Positions 1 to 8,544 are shown, counted from the stretch's first letter. The stretch: DNA of 8,544 bases from a virus (IMGVR_UViG_2751185968_000010); one strand, 5' to 3'. The notes: generated from the letters alone by a model not told the origin. Numbers and translations are program-made.

Positions 1-163
1 CATCGTCGCCCTTCCACTGGTTATCCCAGCCCTCAGGCTTCACTTTAAAGTACGGCGGGTCCGTGACTATCAGGTCAACAGAATTTTCGGGTAACGACCG
101 GATAAATTCCAGGCAGTCGGCGTTGATTAACTCACAACTGGATATTTTTACAGTATTAAGCAT
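1..163 (-). CDS. DNA methyltransferase, N-terminal 54 codons (beta-class N6-adenine/N4-cytosine type); gene continues beyond the window start
   Basis: Minus-strand ORF starting at ATG (163-161) and open to position 1. My translation: MLNTVKISSCELINADCLEFIRSLPENSVDLIVTDPPYFKVKPEGWDNQWKGDD. The D-P-P-Y motif near the N-terminus is the catalytic motif IV of amino-MTases. Not in the ORF track because it is partial. Confidence 0.75.
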   Translation of the reverse strand, partial: MLNTVKISSCELINADCLEFIRSLPENSVDLIVTDPPYFKVKPEGWDNQWKGDD

Positions 164-256
164 GGATCATTAAGCCTGTCTCTGATAGGCTCATTCTGCT
201 TTTGCGCAAAGCAGTGGGCCTGAGGTTTGCTTGTGAACCCAACGCATGAGCAGATG

Positions 257-285
257 GCTGGTGGGTGCCCCTAACACCCACCAGC
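257..285. repeat. Perfect 11-bp inverted repeat GCTGGTGGGTG / CACCCACCAGC with 7-nt loop (GC-rich stem-loop); no adjacent U-tract
   Basis: Read directly from the sequence. Lies in the leader between a minus-strand terminator and the methyltransferase start. Confidence 0.6.
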
Positions 286-298
286 GCCCATTTACCAC

Positions 299-326
299 AA
301 ATAAAAAAGCCTTCACTGCGGAAGGC
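299..326 (-). terminator. Rho-independent terminator (minus strand) at the 3' end of the small ORF
   Basis: Stem GCCTTC / GAAGGC (309-314 / 321-326) with 6-nt loop; on the minus strand it is followed by UUUUUUAUUU (plus-strand A-tract 302-308). The stop codon of the 313-510 ORF lies within the stem. Confidence 0.5.
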
Positions 327-510
327 GTCTGTAACAACCGAACTGATAGTCTGCCAGATCCGCCATAACCAGCTGGGTCAGTATTAACTGGCAGCGTTCG
401 CGTGAAAGGTAAGTATTCTGCGCTATCTCCCCGACTGTCGCCGGTTCGGTAACGCTTAATTCATTAAACACCACTCTGGCGGTTTCTGTCATATCCTGCT
501 GTTTTAGCAT
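313..510 (-). CDS. Small hypothetical protein (65 aa from ATG 510-508); possible helix-turn-helix DNA-binding protein
   Basis: ORF-track ORF 313..597 trimmed to the first in-frame ATG (MLKQQDMTETARV...), preceded by AGGGA about 7 nt upstream. The segment ATVGEIAQNTYLSRERCQLILTQLV looks like an HTH. Bracketed by two minus-strand terminators. Confidence 0.45.
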   Translation of the reverse strand: MLKQQDMTETARVVFNELSVTEPATVGEIAQNTYLSRERCQLILTQLVMADLADYQFGCYRRLPQ

Positions 511-631
511 GTCTTTTTCCCTTTTCCGGTTAACGTGACACACCAATAACTCTTGTCGAAAAAGCCAGCAAGCTGAAAGACAGGTATTCACCGCCACCAG
601 CGCGTTTACTATACTGACGCGATTTCAGTCA

Positions 632-657
632 TAAAAAACCCGCCAGGCGGCGGGGTG
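632..657 (-). terminator. tR'-like intrinsic terminator about 60 nt downstream of the PR'-like start
   Basis: Minus-strand RNA CCCGCC-GCCU-GGCGGG followed by UUUUUUAU; no U-tract on the plus strand. Confidence 0.55.
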
Positions 658-690
658 TAAAAAATCTTCTAACGTCAGGCATAAAACGCC

Positions 691-731
691 CATCGTTAGA
701 GCAAATTTACCACAGATTCGGGAAAAATCAA
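691..731 (-). promoter_or_regulatory. PR'-like late promoter with probable Q-utilisation (qut) region
   Basis: Minus strand: -35 TTGATT (731-726), 16-nt spacer, -10 TAAATT (709-704). The segment GGTAAATTTGCTCTAACGATGGG closely resembles my recollection of lambda PR' (GGTAAATTTGACTCAACGATGGG). Sits immediately downstream of the Q gene. Confidence 0.55.
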
Positions 732-736
732 CAACA

Positions 737-1558
737 CTATCGCGTTACCCTCTTTAACTGCCGCTCCGCCCATGCCTCTTCAATGTCAAACCGAACCACC
801 AACGTATCGTAAAAGCGTTTCACTGATTTTTTCCACGTATCAAGCGTGATAGCACTCGTCACTTTGCATATGGCATTAAATGCCTCCGTTGATGGTAGTC
901 TTTCACAGCCACGACCACCACAACGCTGGCAGTCTCTGATAACAGGCATACCACGTTTTACCGACTCTTCACGATGAATGGCGACACCACGCCCACGGCA
1001 ATCCTTACAGGCGGTGGAAACCTCACCCTTTCCGCCACACTCCGGACAGGCAACTTTTACCACCTCCCTGACTTTTTTCCATTCTTCCCAGTAAGACGGA
1101 TACACACCTTTCGTACACTTTGCCCATACCGGCGGCTTACCATCCGGATACTGGATCTTGTTTGTAAAAACCTCGCTTTCAATAAATTTTTTTCCGTGAC
1201 AGCAGGAGCACTGTTTTTTGCTCGCCGCGCTACGGGCATAATCTTCAAACGCATACGAAGCCATAATACGCATCACTGCCGGTTTTATTTCTGCCGGGAG
1301 TTTTCTTAACGCCGCCACGCGATCACACCGACTGAGTGCATATTCTGTCAGCAATTCTGTTGCCCGCTCTCTGTCATTCATACTAATGCCCATTTTCCCA
1401 AGGAACGCAGAAAACCCCATCTCAGCCCGATTCTGTGTCATGCCCTGCGCGGCCATCACATCAGTGATACTCAGCGCATCTTTCGACGTTGAGGCCGATG
1501 CATCAGTCAGGCCGGGGGATTTTGGGGAGTAGTATTTCGGTAAATCTTCCAGTTTCAT
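737..1558 (-). CDS. Q: Late-gene antitermination protein Q (lambda-Q family) with an expanded cysteine-rich insert
   Basis: 273-aa ORF. N-terminus MKLEDLPKYYSPKSPGL...DVMAAQGM and C-terminus YDTLVV...RVTR align with my recollection of lambda Q (MRLESVAKFHSPKSP...DVMAAMGM ... YDALVV...AVTR). Contains CSCCHGKK, CPECGGKG, CKDCRGRG and CQRCGGRG repeats. Start ATG overlaps the rusA stop (ATGA). Confidence 0.8.
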   Translation of the reverse strand: MKLEDLPKYYSPKSPGLTDASASTSKDALSITDVMAAQGMTQNRAEMGFSAFLGKMGISMNDRERATELLTEYALSRCDRVAALRKLPAEIKPAVMRIMASYAFEDYARSAASKKQCSCCHGKKFIESEVFTNKIQYPDGKPPVWAKCTKGVYPSYWEEWKKVREVVKVACPECGGKGEVSTACKDCRGRGVAIHREESVKRGMPVIRDCQRCGGRGCERLPSTEAFNAICKVTSAITLDTWKKSVKRFYDTLVVRFDIEEAWAERQLKRVTR

Positions 1559-1929
1559 TTTTTGACCTGCCCTTCAAGCATTATGGGGTAAATCTTCACG
1601 CCCAGCCGCCCCCCAGGAACGCGCTGACCGCGCACAATATTGATTTCATCAAACTGCTCGTCGTCTATGAGAAGTCCGGCATGCGTCAGCGCATCCAGTG
1701 GTGCTTTCAGAATATTGTCCAGGTCGCGACGACGCTTATCCGGTGGCTCTGCAATCACCTTTATCGCCAGCCTTCCGGACAGGCTTAATTTCAGCCGCTG
1801 CTGGCGAACAATAAGCGCCACAGCCCGGCGATAACGCTTTCCCTCCTCCGAGATAAAATATGTGCTGCCACGGCGTCGCCAGTAAGTGTTCACCGTCGGC
1901 GGGTAAGGTAAAACCAAATCTATGAGCAT
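1555..1929 (-). CDS. rusA: Holliday junction resolvase RusA (prophage-encoded)
   Basis: 124-aa ORF. The segment KRRRDLDNILKAPLDALTHAGLLIDDEQ...GGRL matches the conserved RusA core (K-12 RusA has [22 protein letters not shown]). SD AAGAGGTGA upstream; 4-nt overlap with Q. Confidence 0.9.
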   Translation of the reverse strand: MLIDLVLPYPPTVNTYWRRRGSTYFISEEGKRYRRAVALIVRQQRLKLSLSGRLAIKVIAEPPDKRRRDLDNILKAPLDALTHAGLLIDDEQFDEINIVRGQRVPGGRLGVKIYPIMLEGQVKK

Positions 1930-1941
1930 CAGTCACCTCTT

Positions 1942-2988
1942 TTACCCAAGCACGCCAGTTGCAAAGGCGTGATCAAGAAAACGAAAAATTAAATCAACCT
2001 GAGAACCATGCTTTTCTTCGAACGCCAGAGGATCCGCATGAAGCTCGTTGTGATGCTCCCGACACAGCGGTAGCGTGAAAATATCGTGAGATTTTGTCCC
2101 CATTCCGCCCTGACCATGACCAATCAGGTGATGGGGATCGTCGGCTGGCTTACCACAACACGCACACGGCTGTGTCTTCACCCAGCGTGTGTATTTCTCG
2201 TTAACCCAGCGGCGACGTTTAGGTCGTTTCATGAAAGATTCCGGAGACTCAGGATCAACGGCAATGCTGACCACCGTCTCTTCCTGTGGCGGGTTTTGCT
2301 GGTGGGCGTGAGACAGCGGCGCAAGATTTTTTGTGCGCTGCTTCAGTATGCTGGTGGCGGTCTGCTCTCCCGGTACGATGTCGCTTTCACGGTACATTGA
2401 GCGGATTTTTTCCGCACGCAACCCCAGCGAACGACGTAATACCGCTTCCGGTAGCGCGTCCGCCACCTGATTGCGGACCGCCCACCAGGATAATTCAGCC
2501 AGCGATAATTCCCGTTCCTGCGAGCCATTCATTGCATGGAGTATGACGTCAATCATCCATGCAGACAGGTTTTGGTGAGCAAGTTGCCCGAGTGATTCGG
2601 AGGTCTGGTCGCGCAGCTGGTTGTCGCAGTGCCAGCACAACACCATTGCGCCGGTACCATAACGGTGAATGACGGTTTCACTGTGGTGATAATCGCCGTG
2701 TGGCCACTGGCAGGATTTAACATGGCGCAGTAACCAGTCAGACAATGCGCCAGCGCCACCAGCAGCACGAATCACTCGTTCGTCGCTGAAAAATGGCAGT
2801 AATGATTTATCCTCCGCCAGCGGCTGGCGAACGGCAGGAACGACCCCGGACGACAGATTACGCATGCTTTTCGGTTCCGGCTCCACCAGTACCCGGGTAT
2901 TGTGGAATACCGGCATGGATTCACGGCCCGGCTTAACGATCACCAGCCCGAGTTCCGGTACCAGAACAGGTCGAAGTAATACCCGCAC
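1942..2988 (-). CDS. Prophage DUF968-like protein with C-terminal HNH-like motif (YdfU-like)
   Basis: 348-aa ORF with GTG start directly after the upstream stop and SD GGAGG 4 nt upstream. C-terminus PCACCGKPADDPHHLIGHGQGGMGTKSHDIFTLPLCREHHNELH has a CxxC...HH...CxxHH...H pattern typical of HNH/zinc-ribbon nucleases. Size and position recall the Qin-prophage protein YdfU. Confidence 0.7.
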   Translation of the reverse strand: MRVLLRPVLVPELGLVIVKPGRESMPVFHNTRVLVEPEPKSMRNLSSGVVPAVRQPLAEDKSLLPFFSDERVIRAAGGAGALSDWLLRHVKSCQWPHGDYHHSETVIHRYGTGAMVLCWHCDNQLRDQTSESLGQLAHQNLSAWMIDVILHAMNGSQERELSLAELSWWAVRNQVADALPEAVLRRSLGLRAEKIRSMYRESDIVPGEQTATSILKQRTKNLAPLSHAHQQNPPQEETVVSIAVDPESPESFMKRPKRRRWVNEKYTRWVKTQPCACCGKPADDPHHLIGHGQGGMGTKSHDIFTLPLCREHHNELHADPLAFEEKHGSQVDLIFRFLDHAFATGVLG

Positions 2989-2989
2989 G

Positions 2990-3268
2990 TTACCTCCAGA
3001 TACGTTGCTGGAATGTGCGGGACGGACGCGGTGGCCGTTCGGAGTAAGGGAGCCTGACGGAGATTATCCAGTGACGGTAGTCGAGGCTAAGGGCTTTTTT
3101 AACCTCGCATCCGCGCCTGCGGTAACACTGAATGAGCCAATCGGCCTGTTCTTCAGTGCATGGGGGATGCTGGTACCAGTCTGACTTAAATGCATGAGAA
3201 TACCGCTCGTGCGTGTGGGCAAGAACGGTCGAATTATCATGATTGTAATATTTTGCGTTGCGTGCCAT
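2990..3268 (-). CDS. Hypothetical prophage protein (92 aa), translationally coupled to the downstream DUF968 gene
   Basis: ATG start with GGAG about 8 nt upstream; its stop is 1 nt before the next start; E. coli-like composition. No family recognised. Confidence 0.55.
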   Translation of the reverse strand: MARNAKYYNHDNSTVLAHTHERYSHAFKSDWYQHPPCTEEQADWLIQCYRRRGCEVKKALSLDYRHWIISVRLPYSERPPRPSRTFQQRIWR

Positions 3269-3334
3269 CGGTTTTCTCCGGTGGCACGGTGTTACTCAGC
3301 GGGAGTTCAGCCCCGCGCAAGATTGTAGATGAGT

Positions 3335-3586
3335 TTATTCTTCTGAAAAAGCAGAAAAGCCAGCTTTTATTCCGATCTCTTTCAATGCCTGTAATGAAGT
3401 GACAAACTCACCGTCGCGCAAGATAAATCCGTCCGTCACTCGGGCATCCACAAAATTAATTAACGCAGCCCCATTTTTTTGCAAACACACAATGCGGTAA
3501 TGACTAACAATATTTCCATTTTCAACGCACACAGCATAGAGGCCATCTTCACAAAAAATTTTACGCAGTTCTTCGATGTTCATCAT
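3335..3586 (-). CDS. Small hypothetical prophage protein (83 aa), immediately downstream of the hok locus
   Basis: ATG start with SD GGAAGGA 7 nt upstream. Same size and position as rem in the Qin prophage of K-12, as I recall that gene order; sequence identity not confirmed. Confidence 0.55.
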   Translation of the reverse strand: MMNIEELRKIFCEDGLYAVCVENGNIVSHYRIVCLQKNGAALINFVDARVTDGFILRDGEFVTSLQALKEIGIKAGFSAFSEE

Positions 3587-3664
3587 CAGAATCCTTCCGG
3601 ATAATTAGCTCTCCCCTTTAAGGGACCATCCCTCTTATCCCTGCGCGCTACTTAAGTATTTTTG

Positions 3665-3694
3665 ATTCTATTCCGGCACCGTCCAGAACTTCAA
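3665..3694 (-). promoter_or_regulatory. Candidate sigma70 promoter for the small-gene/DUF968/rusA/Q operon
   Basis: Minus strand: -35 TTGAAG (3694-3689), 18-nt spacer, -10 TAGAAT (3670-3665). Located between the hok terminator and the next gene. Weak by itself. Confidence 0.25.
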
Positions 3695-3700
3695 ACGCGT

Positions 3701-3733
3701 TGAAAATAAAAACAAAAACCCGCCGAAGCGGGT
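3701..3733 (-). terminator. Rho-independent terminator at the hok mRNA 3' end
   Basis: Minus-strand RNA CCCGC-UUCG-GCGGG followed by UUUUUGUUUUUAUUUU. Just upstream on the RNA, CCUCAACGCACC is complementary to the mRNA 5' end GGUGCUUGAGG (fbi/tac-like pairing). Confidence 0.65.
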
Positions 3734-3802
3734 TAAGTGCGGGTGCGTTGAGGATGCCTGCCACATCAGAGGTGGCGAGGGATTTCTCCCTCGCCGGGTC
3801 TC

Positions 3803-3958
3803 TTACTCCTCAGGTTCGTAAGCTGTGAAGACAGCGACCTCCGTCTGGCCGGTTCGGATTCGTACCTCGCAGAGGTCTTTCCTCGTTACCAGTGCCGTCA
3901 CTATGACGGTTAAACAGATGACGATCAGGGCGATTAGCATCGCCTTTTGCTGCTTCAT
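3803..3958 (-). CDS. hokD: Hok-family type I toxin (HokD/RelF-like), 51 aa
   Basis: Translation MKQQKAMLIALIVICLTVIVTALVTRKDLCEVRIRTGQTEVAVFTAYEPEE matches my recollection of HokD (RelF) and is close to Gef. SD AAGGAGAAG upstream. Single TM helix followed by the conserved C-terminal domain. Confidence 0.9.
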   Translation of the reverse strand: MKQQKAMLIALIVICLTVIVTALVTRKDLCEVRIRTGQTEVAVFTAYEPEE

Positions 3959-4128
3959 AGCCTGCTTCTCCTTGCCTTTCGGCACGTAAGAGGCTAACCT
4001 ACGTGTGTAGAGCATAGATATGGCCTCAGATTAATGTTAAGCGTCTTGCCGGACGCGTAATGTTAACTGGGGCTTTTCTCTATCTGCCTTTGGTGTTGAT
4101 GCCCGAGGCAGATAGCCTCAAGCACCCG
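3959..4128 (-). promoter_or_regulatory. hok mRNA leader: tac-like 5' element, sok-target region and an in-frame upstream (mok-like) start at 4015-4013
   Basis: Minus-strand leader GGTGCTTGAGGCTATCTGCCTCGGGC... parallels the plasmid R1 hok leader (GGCGCTTGAGGCTTTCTGCCTCATGACG...) as I recall it. The upstream ATG opens a frame continuous with hok (track ORF 3803..4015). Confidence 0.5.
3986..4060 (+). ncRNA. Candidate Sok-like antisense RNA (type I antitoxin); ends approximate
   Basis: Plus strand CTTGCCTTTCGGCACGTAAGAGGCTAACCT... is positionally and sequence-wise analogous to the R1 sok promoter/5' region (..CTTGCGCAAAGCGCGGTAAGAGGCTATCCT..). Antisense to the mok-like start. Confidence 0.35.
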
Positions 4129-4133
4129 CAGCA

Positions 4134-4162
4134 ATTCTACTTAACTACCGTTACCTCGCCAA
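4134..4162 (-). promoter_or_regulatory. Candidate hok promoter
   Basis: Minus strand: -35 TTGGCG (4162-4157), 17-nt spacer, -10 TAGAAT (4139-4134), about 7 nt upstream of the inferred mRNA 5' end GGTGCTTGAGG. Confidence 0.4.
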
Positions 4163-4537
4163 TATGAAATCAATCAGAAAGGTGATCCATAAGAACAACA
4201 GCAAGACAATAAATTGCCATTACAGCAGCAATAGCCAGCGCACATTTGAGAACCAGCACCACAACCTCCTGTATTGGACGTACACCAGTCCTGATAAATA
4301 TGAGGCTGTCTCGTCAGTGATTCAATACAACTACTGGGTATAGTTTCTATGATTTTGTTCTGTGGAAATGGAAAACAGCAACCAGTCACCACCAGCACTT
4401 CTTTAAACATGCCAAGTCACACGCAAGCCAACATTATAGTTCCCTTTGAGCGAGCAGATGAAGCTAGCAAAAATATTGATCACTTAGGATGCATTACTAA
4501 CGTTGCTATGTGTTAACGAACAGGGAGTGGGTCATCA

Positions 4538-4553
4538 GCATAAATATTTATGC
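4538..4553. repeat. Perfect 16-bp palindrome GCATAAATATTTATGC about 150 bp upstream of the membrane-protein gene
   Basis: Read directly; the reverse complement is identical. Confidence 0.6.
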
Positions 4554-4700
4554 AGTAGGTTTCTTTTAGGACTAGATTAATCAAAAACATTTAGATAAAA
4601 TTATAAAATCAAGAAATTGGTGGCAATTAATCTTTAATTGTGCCAGCTGAATTTCGTTATTATAGAAGATTAGCTTTTTTTTGAATGTTTGGAGAGTAAA

Positions 4701-5480
4701 ATGTTAGAACCACCAAAGAGTTATAATGAAATGTTGCCTATGCTCCATAAGGCGACTTTTATTACTACATTTATATTTTACCTATCATTAGTCATTTATG
4801 GCTACATGCCATTGGTTGGCATTAATGCCAAGTATATCCCCCCCGTTAAAGACTACGAGGAATTTATTAAATGGATATTAACCTTTGGCATATTACCAAT
4901 TGCATCTTCAGTTTTTTGGTCAGTAATTAGTGGAGCTTTAGATCTACATAATAATGTAGCAAAAATTATTGGAATAAGGAAGATGTGGGATAGTCATTTA
5001 ATTATTAAACCATTAGCAAAAATTGCAGGCGTTACGAGAAAATTAACTACTGATGAATCTCACAAGGTAATGAGTAAACTGTATTACCCAGAAGTTAAAG
5101 AGTTAAAAGACAAACATTACGTTGAACTTTTCTGGAACAAAGTTTATTACTTTTGGGTTTTCTTTGAACATACAGTAATCGCATTTGTTACTATTTTAAT
5201 AATAAGTATCGCCAAATTAACAAATATATTCTCTGTTACTGGCTCTTTAATTAATCTTTGGTTGTGGATTATTTCTCTTGTCGCATTTGACTTCCTTATT
5301 TTCATAGCATCAGTTAAACCAAGAACAGAAAGCCAAGTAAGACAAATACCTGATAGCAAAATAAAAGAATTCTTTAACAATAACAATATTTTTTTAAACG
5401 AGGTTGATTTTGAATTACAAAATAAATGGAATAAACATACGTTCAGAAAATGCAGCGAAACCGCACACTATGCCATCTAA
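4701..5480 (+). CDS. Hypothetical integral membrane protein, 259 aa, four predicted TM helices
   Basis: ATG at 4701 with SD GGAGAG 4 nt upstream (track ORF starts at an upstream TTG). Hydrophobic segments ATFITTFIFYLSLVIYGYMPLVGI, WILTFGILPIASSVFWSVISGAL, VYYFWVFFEHTVIAFVTILIISIA, LINLWLWIISLVAFDFLIFIASV. A 780-nt open frame in 30% GC DNA is unlikely by chance. Confidence 0.7.
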   Translation: MLEPPKSYNEMLPMLHKATFITTFIFYLSLVIYGYMPLVGINAKYIPPVKDYEEFIKWILTFGILPIASSVFWSVISGALDLHNNVAKIIGIRKMWDSHLIIKPLAKIAGVTRKLTTDESHKVMSKLYYPEVKELKDKHYVELFWNKVYYFWVFFEHTVIAFVTILIISIAKLTNIFSVTGSLINLWLWIISLVAFDFLIFIASVKPRTESQVRQIPDSKIKEFFNNNNIFLNEVDFELQNKWNKHTFRKCSETAHYAI

Positions 5481-6063
5481 CTATCTCTGTAAACAGATTG
5501 AAAGCACTAATAAAAATGGCAATGCCCTTGATTTTGGATGTGGAAAACTTAGATATTCAGAACAATTAGTAAATAAATTTGAAACTGTGACATTTTTAGA
5601 TTCCAGAAGACAACTAGAAAGAGTGCAAATTATCAGAGGTGTACAAACCACGATTCCAGATTACGTGATAAATAACTATAAGAATGCTAATATTGTTTCT
5701 TATGAAAATATAGATAAAATAACAAATCATTATGATTTCATACTTTGCGCAAACGTGCTTTCCGCAATTCCATGTGAATCCACAATTCACAAAGTCCTCA
5801 GTGCGATTAGAGAATTATTAAAGAGTGATGGTGAAGCACTGATTGTCAATCAATACAAAAGTTCTTATTTCAAGAGGTACGAGAGCGGTATTAAACATTT
5901 GCATGGGTATATATACCAAAACTCTCGTAATGCTTTCTACTATGGTTTATTAGATGTGGATACTGTAAGTAAAATATGCTCAGATAATAATTTAGAAATA
6001 ATAAAATCATGGAGCAAAGCAGGTAGTTCATATGTGGTTGTTGGTAAACATATACATATTTAG
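5470..6063 (+). CDS. Small class-I SAM-dependent methyltransferase (197 aa from ATG 5470; alternative TTG starts at 5404/5410)
   Basis: Rossmann MTase motifs in order: motif I ALDFGCGKL, acidic post-I VTFLD, motif II DFILCANVL, motif III LLKSDGEALIV. No (D/N/S)PP(Y/F) motif, so probably not a DNA amino-MTase. ATG 5470 overlaps the upstream stop (ATGCCATCTAA). Confidence 0.65.
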   Translation: MPSNYLCKQIESTNKNGNALDFGCGKLRYSEQLVNKFETVTFLDSRRQLERVQIIRGVQTTIPDYVINNYKNANIVSYENIDKITNHYDFILCANVLSAIPCESTIHKVLSAIRELLKSDGEALIVNQYKSSYFKRYESGIKHLHGYIYQNSRNAFYYGLLDVDTVSKICSDNNLEIIKSWSKAGSSYVVVGKHIHI

Positions 6064-6377
6064 TTTATTTCAACAAATTATTAGAAAGAGTGATTTGCTT
6101 GTTAATTATTAGCTCGGCAGTGCCGGATCAACATGACCCTGCCACTTAGGCCATTGCCGGTTTATCTACTTTTGTAAGGTTCAGCATGAAGTTTTTATAT
6201 ACTCTTCCTAATATCAATAGTGATGCTCGCTTATGTTAGCTGCTTCTTGTACATAGTAGCCTTCTCCGACAGTACTGCAATGAGCGGAGAGTAAAAGTCG
6301 ATAAACAATAAGGAGGTTCACAATAAATATTTCTCGGTGAAACTTTCAAAGCATTCTCTGTTTTGCTAAATCGACAA

Positions 6378-7277
6378 TTATAAATCAACAACATTTAGTG
6401 TTATATCAATATTATTTAGCCTTGCAATCTCTGATGAATCACTTGCTATTTTAGCTTTTAATTTATCAATATTAATCATATCTTCATGGCTTATATAAAC
6501 CATATCACCTTGGTTAACTTTAGATTTGTTCACTATGGCTTGAATAACAGACAAATCATCCATTACACCTCTCATAAATTTCACCATGCTTTGATCTTTG
6601 AAGTCAGATATCGATTTTGAACGTTGCTTACGTTGAATTGTTCCTTTTGTAATTACTTCATTAATTTCTTTTAAACCAGTGAGCATATCAGACAGACTGC
6701 CTTCGCAACTCATCCGATGTTTTATTGCATTGCGATTAATAATATTGAGTATAATTTCGAGTGAATCTTTATCACTCCATGGATGTAATGATGTATAATC
6801 ATGATGGCGTCGAATGGCGTCAATCATATCCTGGACCATATCTTCATCTGCTTTATCGCAAAGTTCATTCACGAAATAGCTGGGGTCGATTATTTTACAA
6901 TAACTTGGAGTTAGGTATCTTGAGGCTTTACAAAAACCAAAAATATATAAAGTAGAGTATTTATCTTTCAGACTCTCTCCTATTTCATTTGTTTCCTCAA
7001 AAGATTCGATAGTTTTTTTAATTTTTGCTGGACTTGCATTCGTAGTAACTTGAACTGCTATCATGTTTTTATTATCAGCTAAATCAATGGCGGGAAAATT
7101 AACTTTAATCTGATTCATGTTTACCAGTTCACCCATTTTCAGCGCGCGAAACATAAAGATGGTCAATGACTCAATTATTCTTTCCATGTCATGAAAGCCT
7201 GCCTGTTTGCGTTGCGCGATATAAAGCTGGAGTAGTGCAATATCACTCTGTAAGTTTCTAATAAGTGGATCAATCAT
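6378..7277 (-). CDS. Hypothetical 299-aa protein with a candidate HEPN-type R-N-x-x-x-H motif (putative RNase/abortive-infection-like)
   Basis: ATG start with SD AAGGA 9 nt upstream. Residues 182-187 RNAIKH (nt 6734-6717), in a predicted helical context LEIILNIINRNAIKHRMS, fit the HEPN Rx4-6H signature. N-terminal region has a strand-like AIDLADNKNMIAVQVTT segment. No family assignment is possible without a search. Confidence 0.65.
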   Translation of the reverse strand: MIDPLIRNLQSDIALLQLYIAQRKQAGFHDMERIIESLTIFMFRALKMGELVNMNQIKVNFPAIDLADNKNMIAVQVTTNASPAKIKKTIESFEETNEIGESLKDKYSTLYIFGFCKASRYLTPSYCKIIDPSYFVNELCDKADEDMVQDMIDAIRRHHDYTSLHPWSDKDSLEIILNIINRNAIKHRMSCEGSLSDMLTGLKEINEVITKGTIQRKQRSKSISDFKDQSMVKFMRGVMDDLSVIQAIVNKSKVNQGDMVYISHEDMINIDKLKAKIASDSSEIARLNNIDITLNVVDL

Positions 7278-7313
7278 AGCTAATAATCCTTTTCAATGAA
7301 GCTGGAGGTGTGT

Positions 7314-7346
7314 TTAACTATTAGTTAAATTTCTATTTTTATAGAA
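7314..7346. repeat. Two adjacent palindromes in the promoter region of the 299-aa gene (TTAACTA-T-TAGTTAA and TTCTAT-TTTT-ATAGAA)
   Basis: Read directly: 7314-7328 and 7331-7346, 37-70 bp upstream of the start codon at 7277. Confidence 0.5.
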
Positions 7347-7529
7347 ACAAGCTTTACAACTTCATCAAAGTTTCTCAAATCCTAATCCACTTTGCAAATC
7401 CACTAACCATGCTGAATGCTTTCTGTTGTTAAACATATCCGCTGCTGGCACCAAGCAGACAAACACACTAACTCTACCCTACTCCACAAAAGAGCCAATC
7501 AATATCTGAACTAATAAACTTTAATCTCA

Positions 7530-7952
7530 TCACTTCAATAAATATCGAGCATTTCCCTGATAGAATGCTAGTATGCGCTGCATAACTTCACTCTTCCGGC
7601 ACTCGCGACAGATTATGTTCTGACGCCTGTCGTAGCGACGTATTTCTCCGTCAGGTAATGACCAGATAAGGTCCGGATCAACCGCAGATGGTTCCTTCAG
7701 CTTTGCCCTTGAGAGCTTTTTACGGGCATTTTGCCAGTCCTTACGCGCCTGTTCAGACGGGAATAACCCGTAACCAGAGTTGTATACATCGCCGCTGGCA
7801 ACCAGCTCTCTTGCGAGAACGCTCATCAGATATCTTGTCGCACCTGTCTTGACTTCCAGTTGCCGTAACGTCTCACGACCGCTCTGGCGCACGAGTTCCA
7901 CCACCTGCCCTTTAATTTTTTCCCGCTCTTCTTGTGTAAAAACTTTTGCCAC
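7530..7952 (-). CDS. Hypothetical protein (140 aa), backbone-like GC
   Basis: GTG start with strong SD AAGGGGGA 4-5 nt upstream; about 50% GC; no family recognised. Confidence 0.6.
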   Translation of the reverse strand: MAKVFTQEEREKIKGQVVELVRQSGRETLRQLEVKTGATRYLMSVLARELVASGDVYNSGYGLFPSEQARKDWQNARKKLSRAKLKEPSAVDPDLIWSLPDGEIRRYDRRQNIICRECRKSEVMQRILAFYQGNARYLLK

Positions 7953-7992
7953 AAGTCCCCCTTAAAATTACCTCATGACCTGAAATCAAAAC

Positions 7993-8183
7993 TTATCCTC
8001 TGAAACCAGGCGGAATTTCTGTATCCGGTTCAGAAATATGATTAACACAACGCTGTACAGGTGAACGCCCCAGGCGGATGACCAGTTCGTCCCATTTTTC
8101 GCGGAGCTTTGACGGGCTCATGATGTTTTTTACCCAGAACGGATCCCGCTGTACCCGACCAAACATTTCACAAATTTGTCTGT
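7993..8183 (-). pseudogene. Possible 3' remnant of a gene truncated by the IS insertion (open frame abutting the IS end)
   Basis: Minus-strand frame open from the IS junction (8183) to a stop at 7995-7993: ...RQICEMFGRVQRDPFWVKNIMSPSKLREKWDELVIRLGRSPVQRCVNHISEPDTEIPPGFRG. Could also be non-coding. Confidence 0.25.
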
Positions 8184-8544
8184 TGAACCGCCCCGGGAAT
8201 CCTGGAGACTAAACTCCCTGAGAAAGAGGTAAACAGGATGACTAAAAATACTCGTTTTTCCCCCGAAGTCCGTCAGAGGGCGATTCGTATGGTTCTGGAA
8301 AGTCAGGGCGAATATGACTCACAGTGGGCGGCAATTTGTTCCATTGCCCCAAAGATTGGCTGTACACCGGAGACTCTGCGTGTCTGGGTACGCCAGCATG
8401 AGCGGGATACCGGAGGCGGTGATGGCGGGCTCACCACCGCTGAACGTCAGCGTCTGAAAGAGCTGGAACGTGAAAATCGTGAACTGCGCCGCAGTAACGA
8501 TATCCTTCGCCAGGCTTCCGCTTATTTTGCGAAGGCGGAGTTCG
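8184..8544 (+). mobile_element. IS3-family insertion sequence, left end (IS629-like); continues beyond the window
   Basis: Terminal sequence TGAACCGCCCCGGGAATCCTGGAGACTAAAC... starting with TG, followed 54 nt later by the OrfA start; matches my recollection of the IS629 left end. Confidence 0.8.
8238..8544 (+). CDS. IS3-family transposase OrfA (HTH subunit), first 102 codons; 3' end outside the window
   Basis: Translation [102 protein letters not shown] matches IS629/IS1203-type OrfA as I remember it. SD GAGG upstream. Confidence 0.9.

Follow-up and report, generated by a model that had tools for sequence, protein, structure and literature searches.

The closest described counterpart of the locus analysed here lies in e14, the cryptic prophage of Escherichia coli K-12, where the membrane protein gene ymfE (b1138) is followed directly by the methyltransferase-type gene ymfD (b1137). 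YmfE was linked to phage defence in a preprint dated 11 September 2026, in which the lit/ymfE locus was found to be silenced by H-NS, and deletion of ymfE in a delta-hns strain restored plating of T5-like phages (bioRxiv 10.64898/2026.09.05.749240). Plasmid-borne ymfE, on a clone for which the presence of ymfD is unstated, protects against T5-like phages of differing receptors, and YmfE leaves adsorption unblocked; the authors named YmfE "Kunado" and proposed that it blocks DNA injection (bioRxiv 10.64898/2026.09.05.749240). The YmfE clone was both propagated and assayed in E. coli, and an e14 deletion screen returned only lit and ymfE as hits (bioRxiv 10.64898/2026.09.05.749240). Because the phages use different receptors and adsorption is unblocked, the step at which K-12 YmfE acts is DNA entry or a later one. 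Neither "ymfD" nor "methyltransferase" occurs (0 occurrences) in the text of the preprint (bioRxiv 10.64898/2026.09.05.749240), and a literature search on the name Kunado found no paper using it beyond this one. In older literature, ymfD is an uncharacterised putative methyltransferase gene whose knockout grows normally; YmfD is not the 23S m6A2030 enzyme, as the mark is kept in the knockout, nor is it the sole mRNA m6A enzyme (PMC3936739, PMC12096079).

The window, meaning the whole 8,544-nt stretch of viral DNA that was analysed, is contained in a lambdoid prophage. Its bases 1-8183 are 99.96% identical to a prophage adjoining ompW in E. coli Ecol_AZ155, and the IMG/VR contig UViG_2751185970_000009 is identical to bases 1-7793. 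A composition profile, together with the RefSeq annotation of the identical region in Ecol_AZ155, delimits a low-GC accessory island at 4400-7450, with about 29-35% GC compared to 45-57% in the flanks; judged by composition, the island would be typical of H-NS targets. Bordered by the hok/sok-rem side of the prophage and, at its other end, by the DUF977/replication side, it contains three genes, encoding a membrane protein (from ATG 4701), a class I SAM-dependent methyltransferase (ending at 6063), and a convergent SMEK_N-domain protein. Of 5426 complete E. coli genomes, 153 carry this same 3 kb. On its left, the island is bounded by the hokD toxin gene and the sok antisense RNA (3803-4127, minus strand; RefSeq hokD, full-length Rfam sok match of 114 bits), a type I toxin-antitoxin locus that is separate from the membrane protein and methyltransferase pair. 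A promoter and terminator scan of 4000-7600 gave fewer sites than expected from shuffled sequence and is therefore not informative.

Similarity to the Ecol_AZ155 prophage ends at 8183, and bases 8184-8544 encode the start of an IS3-family-like transposase. A replication-region gene is truncated by it, leaving the ORF at 7993-8166 (minus strand) as the C-terminal fragment, and the prophage in the window looks as if it is decaying. In the reference genome, the same prophage carries genes for a 'beta family protein' and an 'sce7726 family protein' beyond the lysis module (L001 1-957), which may be another accessory or defence locus; systems of the gop-beta-cII type offer a comparison for these genes.

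The first gene of the pair, encoding a YmfE/Kunado-family inner-membrane protein with four transmembrane (TM) helices, occupies 4701-5480 on the plus strand (259 aa in the window) and is preceded by a Shine-Dalgarno-like GGAG at 4691-4694, 6 nt before ATG 4701. An earlier note on this DNA had proposed two same-strand genes, the first for a 4-TM protein. Both genes are real, as the ORF at 4701-5480 and the methyltransferase ORF ending at 6063 attest, and the 4-TM assignment agrees with four hydrophobic helices in the hydropathy profile and with an all-helical AF2 model (pLDDT 87; helices 8-32, 53-80, 138-174, and 183-214). The model places a conserved helical domain of ~65 residues between TM2 and TM3, predicted to lie on the cytoplasmic side. 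Residues H83, R93, and Y129 of this domain and E156 of TM3 are invariant in the family, and the invariant polar residues map to the cytoplasmic membrane face. Counts of lysine and arginine favour a topology with both termini and the middle domain inside the cell, and a relative with a C-terminal TIR fusion, described below, agrees with a cytoplasmic C-terminus. Pfam, NCBIfam, and PADLOC gave no family assignment for the protein, with sub-threshold matches only in Pfam (E 0.07) and PHROGs (E 0.048). An exhaustive profile search of 1.84 billion representative proteins returned only 215 YmfE-family clusters, nearly all of 230-250 aa, and a profile search of a word-indexed protein database added only three distant members. 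On two viral contigs the YmfE-like gene is in two pieces 1.1-1.4 kb apart, as though an insertion element interrupts it, and the methyltransferase is intact (L069, 3534-3737 and 5142-5555; L073, 3478-3843 and 4986-5384).

The second gene encodes a YmfD-family class I SAM-dependent methyltransferase (5410-6063, plus strand; 217 aa from TTG 5410, or 219 aa from TTG 5404). Its class I character, noted earlier, stands, with Pfam matches to Methyltransf_12 and Methyltransf_23, but the full GxGxG motif does not, since motif I reads DFGCGKL and contains only GxG. Motif IV is NVLSAIP. The catalytic motifs are invariant across phyla in the homologue alignment, and from its sequence the enzyme looks catalytically intact. 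Its best fold matches are small-molecule and tRNA methyltransferases, no NCBIfam equivalog family was matched, and the sole PADLOC match is weak (mad2, 8e-5). As previously remarked, a DPPY-type motif is missing: neither PP[YFW] nor any PP dipeptide occurs in the protein. The enzyme does not fit the pattern of DNA amino-methyltransferases and restriction-modification systems, which comprises a (D/N/S)PP(Y/F/W) motif, a target-recognition domain, and a partner nuclease. One homologue carries the name ymfD from its source, and a literature search on three RefSeq protein accessions returned nothing.

Both proteins have full counterparts in e14. K-12 YmfE is 60% identical to the window membrane protein over 230 residues, covering its full length (BLASTP, E 5e-107), and K-12 YmfD is 68% identical to the methyltransferase, with the N-terminal ENAAKPHT motif included. 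The two loci share the 4-TM architecture of the membrane protein, its position directly upstream of a YmfD-type methyltransferase in an AT-rich prophage accessory locus, and a tight junction, the ymfE TGA directly abutting the ymfD ATG in K-12. Homology, the 4-TM fold with its helical domain, and the downstream methyltransferase identify the pair as the counterpart of ymfE-ymfD, and the earlier suggestion that it had no precedent is therefore set aside. The sites differ, with the window copy at the lambdoid replication/nin junction by hok/sok and the SMEK gene, and the K-12 copy by lit at the end of e14. The window copy also differs from K-12 YmfE by one additional T, which adds 28 C-terminal residues.

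This additional base lies in a run of seven T at 5389-5395 (plus strand) that has six T elsewhere, as seen by comparison with the reference genome, complete genomes, and viral contigs. Through the frameshift that this base causes, the membrane protein gains 28 residues and its translation continues past the methyltransferase start. Almost every other copy of the gene encodes 231 aa and ends at a TAA corresponding to 5395-5397, and all 38 homologues found in a large protein collection are ~231 aa long, spanning 89% of the 259-aa query. Ecol_AZ155 has T6 at this position. When a 91-base probe centred on the run was compared with complete E. coli genomes, all 146 genomes with this stretch matched at no more than 98.9% with one gap and none at 100%, corresponding to T6. 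T6 was also found in 16 of 17 viral contigs with the same allele, T7 being present only in the window's own source. The exact 259-aa product occurs in 26 E. coli/Shigella contigs, compared to at least 1000 contigs for the 217-aa methyltransferase. The T7 form is thus a minority allele or a recurrent homopolymer error. The other differences from Ecol_AZ155 over the 8183 bases are a 1-nt deletion in an intergenic CC run at 284 and a G/A difference at 7870; since two of the three differences are single-base homopolymer indels, the T7 run is possibly a sequencing error. The apparent decay of the prophage is consistent with a true frameshift in the membrane gene. The window copy may accordingly be impaired, or the extra T may be an error. 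On a true T7 allele, ribosomes translating the membrane gene would run over the methyltransferase start and halt at 5480, which could interfere with production of the methyltransferase or shift initiation towards ATG 5470, giving a truncated protein.

The position of the methyltransferase start also bears on the junction. The 20 residues encoded directly before ATG 5470, NYKINGINIRSENAAKPHT, are conserved in K-12 YmfD and in 34 homologues across phyla, down to 40% identity, and N14, A16, K17, and P18 of this N-terminal segment are invariant in the 34-homologue alignment. Because conserved residues lie upstream of ATG 5470, the start is most likely TTG 5410 (or TTG 5404), and the earlier placement at ATG 5470 is replaced accordingly. 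The RefSeq annotation, which also uses ATG 5470 (197 aa), cuts off the family-invariant N-terminal ENAAKP motif and is corrected here. A Shine-Dalgarno-like GAGG (5400-5403, plus strand) lies inside a 12-nt spacer, 6 nt before TTG 5410, and gene callers place the starts of homologous methyltransferases 11-14 nt past the upstream stop. The upstream start, the GAGG, and this spacing indicate that the native junction is a 12-nt spacer with no overlap. The overlap of ATG 5470 with the stop at 5478-5480, from which co-expression had been proposed, is present in the window, but it rests on the T7 run and is not native. In the T6 form, both genes lie in one frame with a single stop between them. Read-through fusion as a family trait was considered and rejected, because most spacer lengths elsewhere in the family are not divisible by three.

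The two genes are linked wherever the family was found. A methyltransferase-side scan with one genome per species returned 32 loci, 31 with enough flanking DNA, and in all 31 a YmfE-family ORF adjoins on the same strand. From the other side, all 28 viral-contig loci found through YmfE have the methyltransferase adjoining, as does every contig found through the membrane protein with enough room, including a mobile element with a relaxase and one pair that is 34% identical. The linked loci span about six phyla, with Gammaproteobacteria (among them Pseudomonas, Marinomonas, Halomonas, Colwellia, and Microbulbifer), Bradyrhizobium, Planctomycetota, Acidobacteriota, Dormibacterota, Acidimicrobiia, and Gemmatimonadales represented. 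Distant membrane partners are homologous by hhalign (probability 99.4%, E 1.8e-21, 211 columns). Gene order is swapped in 5 loci with adjacency retained, the intergenic gap is -23 to +14 nt in 42 of 43 distinct loci, and true overlaps of 11-23 nt occur in 9 of the 43. The two proteins co-evolve: their pairwise identities are correlated at r = 0.95, a value reached by 0 of 2000 permutations. No third conserved gene was found beside the pair across loci. Adjacency, strand, and near-zero spacing are thus conserved in every related locus, as the earlier description of a tightly linked two-gene unit implied, and the comparison of gene neighbourhoods that it had called for places the homologues together throughout. 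Both genes are genuine and linked in function, with the methyltransferase accompanying the membrane protein as a constant partner.

Several loci warrant separate comment. A 471-aa 'fusion' ORF in Bradyrhizobium (L041 3861-5276; L042 3534-4949) was rejected as a frameshifted copy because the rest of the membrane protein, with TM3, TM4, and the conserved tail, is found in the +1 frame; the same YmfE-like frameshift is common to both Bradyrhizobium assemblies. Three contigs of 2.4-3.0 kb labelled Candidatus Scatousia, Haemophilus, and Streptomyces (L014, L015, and L016) carry the pair with a methyltransferase 85-99% identical to that of the window, and are probably enterobacterial contamination or mis-binning.

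The genomic surroundings of the pair are those of defence systems and mobile elements. Hachiman (HamA plus helicase) directly adjoins it in three loci (L022, L029, and L011). Other direct neighbours are Olokun (L021), Lamassu (L030), and a type III restriction-modification system (L039). The pair stands just after ogr in Providencia and Enterobacter prophages of the P2-like kind, and in e14 it is beside lit. Sites of the cassette in enterobacterial prophages vary, and include positions after tail fibre genes, by integrases, after replication gene O, and by IS110. Plasmids gave only 3 matches, and the pair was not found in 50,697 sequenced phage isolates. On the Dormibacterota contigs L074-L076, a solo Cas1-family gene, a 182-aa gene, and a large serine recombinase precede the pair (3935-5286 in L074 coordinates), and an IS21 element follows it. 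A defence role, raised in the earlier note, gains support from these neighbourhoods and from the phage phenotype of the K-12 homologue YmfE/Kunado (bioRxiv 10.64898/2026.09.05.749240). It is further supported by a variant in which a YmfE-like protein (P0329, 395 aa) carries a C-terminal TIR domain (TIR_2, 2.1e-20). On its metagenome contig (L077 2059-3968), the gene preceding P0329 at a distance of 2 nt encodes a YmfD-family methyltransferase (HMM E 9e-66), and this retention of the methyltransferase also supports its standing as a constant partner. Just upstream on the same contig (748-1878) is a gene for a 376-aa protein of no known family. The likeness to membrane-anchored TIR defence proteins (TM plus TIR) extends to P0329 alone, as a TIR domain on a YmfE scaffold; the window membrane protein, unlike these proteins, has no TIR domain, and the TIR variant retains the methyltransferase.

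A further comparison is with HK97 gp15, P22 SieA, and T4 Imm, small inner-membrane superinfection-exclusion proteins of phages and prophages that block DNA entry. They act after adsorption, a mode also proposed for Kunado. Comparisons of sequence and fold showed no similarity between the membrane protein and superinfection-exclusion proteins, and to our knowledge none of the three has an obligate methyltransferase partner. The range of the YmfE family, by contrast, extends far beyond prophages to defence islands on the chromosomes of several phyla.

Taken as a whole, we consider it likely that the locus is a prophage-borne copy of the K-12 e14 YmfE-YmfD module, consisting of a membrane protein and its partner methyltransferase. 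As part of this explanation, the methyltransferase would be an obligate cytoplasmic partner of the membrane protein. Both proteins would be synthesised jointly from a single AT-rich transcript whose stop and start codons lie close together or overlap, and they may assemble into a complex at the membrane's inner face. The methyltransferase would serve there as a constant accessory that regulates, modifies, or extends the range of the membrane protein, rather than as an interchangeable effector, a role suggested by its retention in the TIR-fused variant. Since the screen of e14 deletions pointed to lit and ymfE alone, the enzyme is probably dispensable for the T5 phenotype. Several points count against this explanation: the defence phenotype was measured on the 60%-identical K-12 homologue rather than on the window allele, the preprint credits ymfE and never mentions ymfD, the pair is absent from the phage isolates, and the window allele is frameshifted at the junction. 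We suggest, tentatively and with somewhat less conviction than doubt, that the natural unit of Kunado is an ancient two-protein machine, present in six or more bacterial phyla, in which YmfE itself, a lipid, or an incoming phage component is methylated at the membrane's inner face so as to set or tune the block to genome entry, and in which, in some lineages, the same sensor drives a TIR effector.

The main rival is an abortive infection model of the sensor-effector kind, in which the membrane protein detects incoming phage DNA or a disturbed membrane and in response activates the methyltransferase, the true effector, which then stops infection by methylating an essential host or phage RNA, protein, or metabolite. 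The methyltransferase is the only enzyme of the canonical pair, is invariably linked to and co-evolving with the membrane protein, and has catalytic motifs invariant across phyla, all in favour of this model, and the TIR fusion indicates that the membrane module can be wired to an effector of the abortive-infection type. However, the TIR variant keeps the methyltransferase, as would be expected of a constant partner more than of one exchangeable effector, and the e14 screen named ymfE and not ymfD, while cloned 'Kunado (YmfE)' was active (bioRxiv 10.64898/2026.09.05.749240). We therefore regard this model as unlikely. Less likely still, and in our view improbable, is a non-defence prophage 'moron' in which a membrane protein and a small-molecule or lipid methyltransferase alter envelope chemistry or detoxify a compound in the manner of the tellurite resistance operon tehA-tehB, with any effect on phage secondary. 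The resemblance to tehA-tehB lies in the gene arrangement, where a small class I SAM methyltransferase is encoded after a membrane protein, and in weak TehB (Pfam, 24.6 bits) and UbiG-type similarity of the methyltransferase; invariant polar residues at the cytoplasmic membrane face could also present a lipid substrate. Yet the NCBIfam TehB scores of 28.0 and 29.1 bits are about one-tenth of the equivalog cut-offs of 218 and 303 and so fall far short. TehA is a 10-TM transporter, whereas the partner here has four TM helices and showed no TehA similarity in a Pfam search. The genomic contexts of tehA-tehB are unlike those of the pair, which adjoins defence systems and mobile-element hotspots rather than metabolic operons. 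The existence of a TIR-fused variant and the direct phage phenotype of YmfE also argue against a metabolic role (bioRxiv 10.64898/2026.09.05.749240).

The convergent gene of the island raises another alternative, a three-gene system with the SMEK nuclease as effector and the membrane protein and methyltransferase as sensor or modifier. This gene (6378-7277, minus strand) encodes a 299-aa protein with an N-terminal SMEK_N domain (Pfam, 1.6e-22) and an N-terminal match to the PADLOC model Aga_REase-PNTD1-PNTD2 (1e-20), its C-terminal half being unassigned. SMEK is a nuclease domain of effectors linked to short prokaryotic Argonaute (pAgo) proteins (PMC10810196), and together with the PADLOC match this would suit an effector role. 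The three genes stay together in 151 complete E. coli genomes, in L047-L066 (L065 excepted), and in L071, and the cassettes of L061-L064, L066, and L071 are 83-91% identical while their outer flanks differ. Against this, SMEK is transcribed convergently to the pair and is absent beside it in e14, P2-like prophages, L065, L067, L068, L070, and all 20-odd distant loci; moreover, e14 YmfE works without SMEK (bioRxiv 10.64898/2026.09.05.749240). Of the elements of short pAgo/SMEK-APAZ systems, only SMEK_N is matched, with neither an APAZ domain nor an Argonaute-like ORF within the window. A three-gene system is therefore very improbable, and the SMEK gene is probably a separate nuclease-type defence candidate rather than a constant component of the pair. 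A toxin and immunity relationship, also mentioned in the earlier note, is not supported, as no toxin-antitoxin-type family match was found for the pair in Pfam, PADLOC, PHROGs, or NCBIfam.

The phage defence activity of YmfE was already known; what is new here is its linkage to the methyltransferase in every genome examined, including in the TIR-bearing variant. Both ymfE and ymfD are long-unexplained K-12 genes, one of which has just been given a defence role in a study that left out its constant partner. The linkage makes the role of YmfD, whether in defence range, regulation, or self-modification, a direct experimental question. A methyltransferase that aids a membrane gatekeeper against phage DNA entry would represent a defence mechanism for which we know of no precedent.
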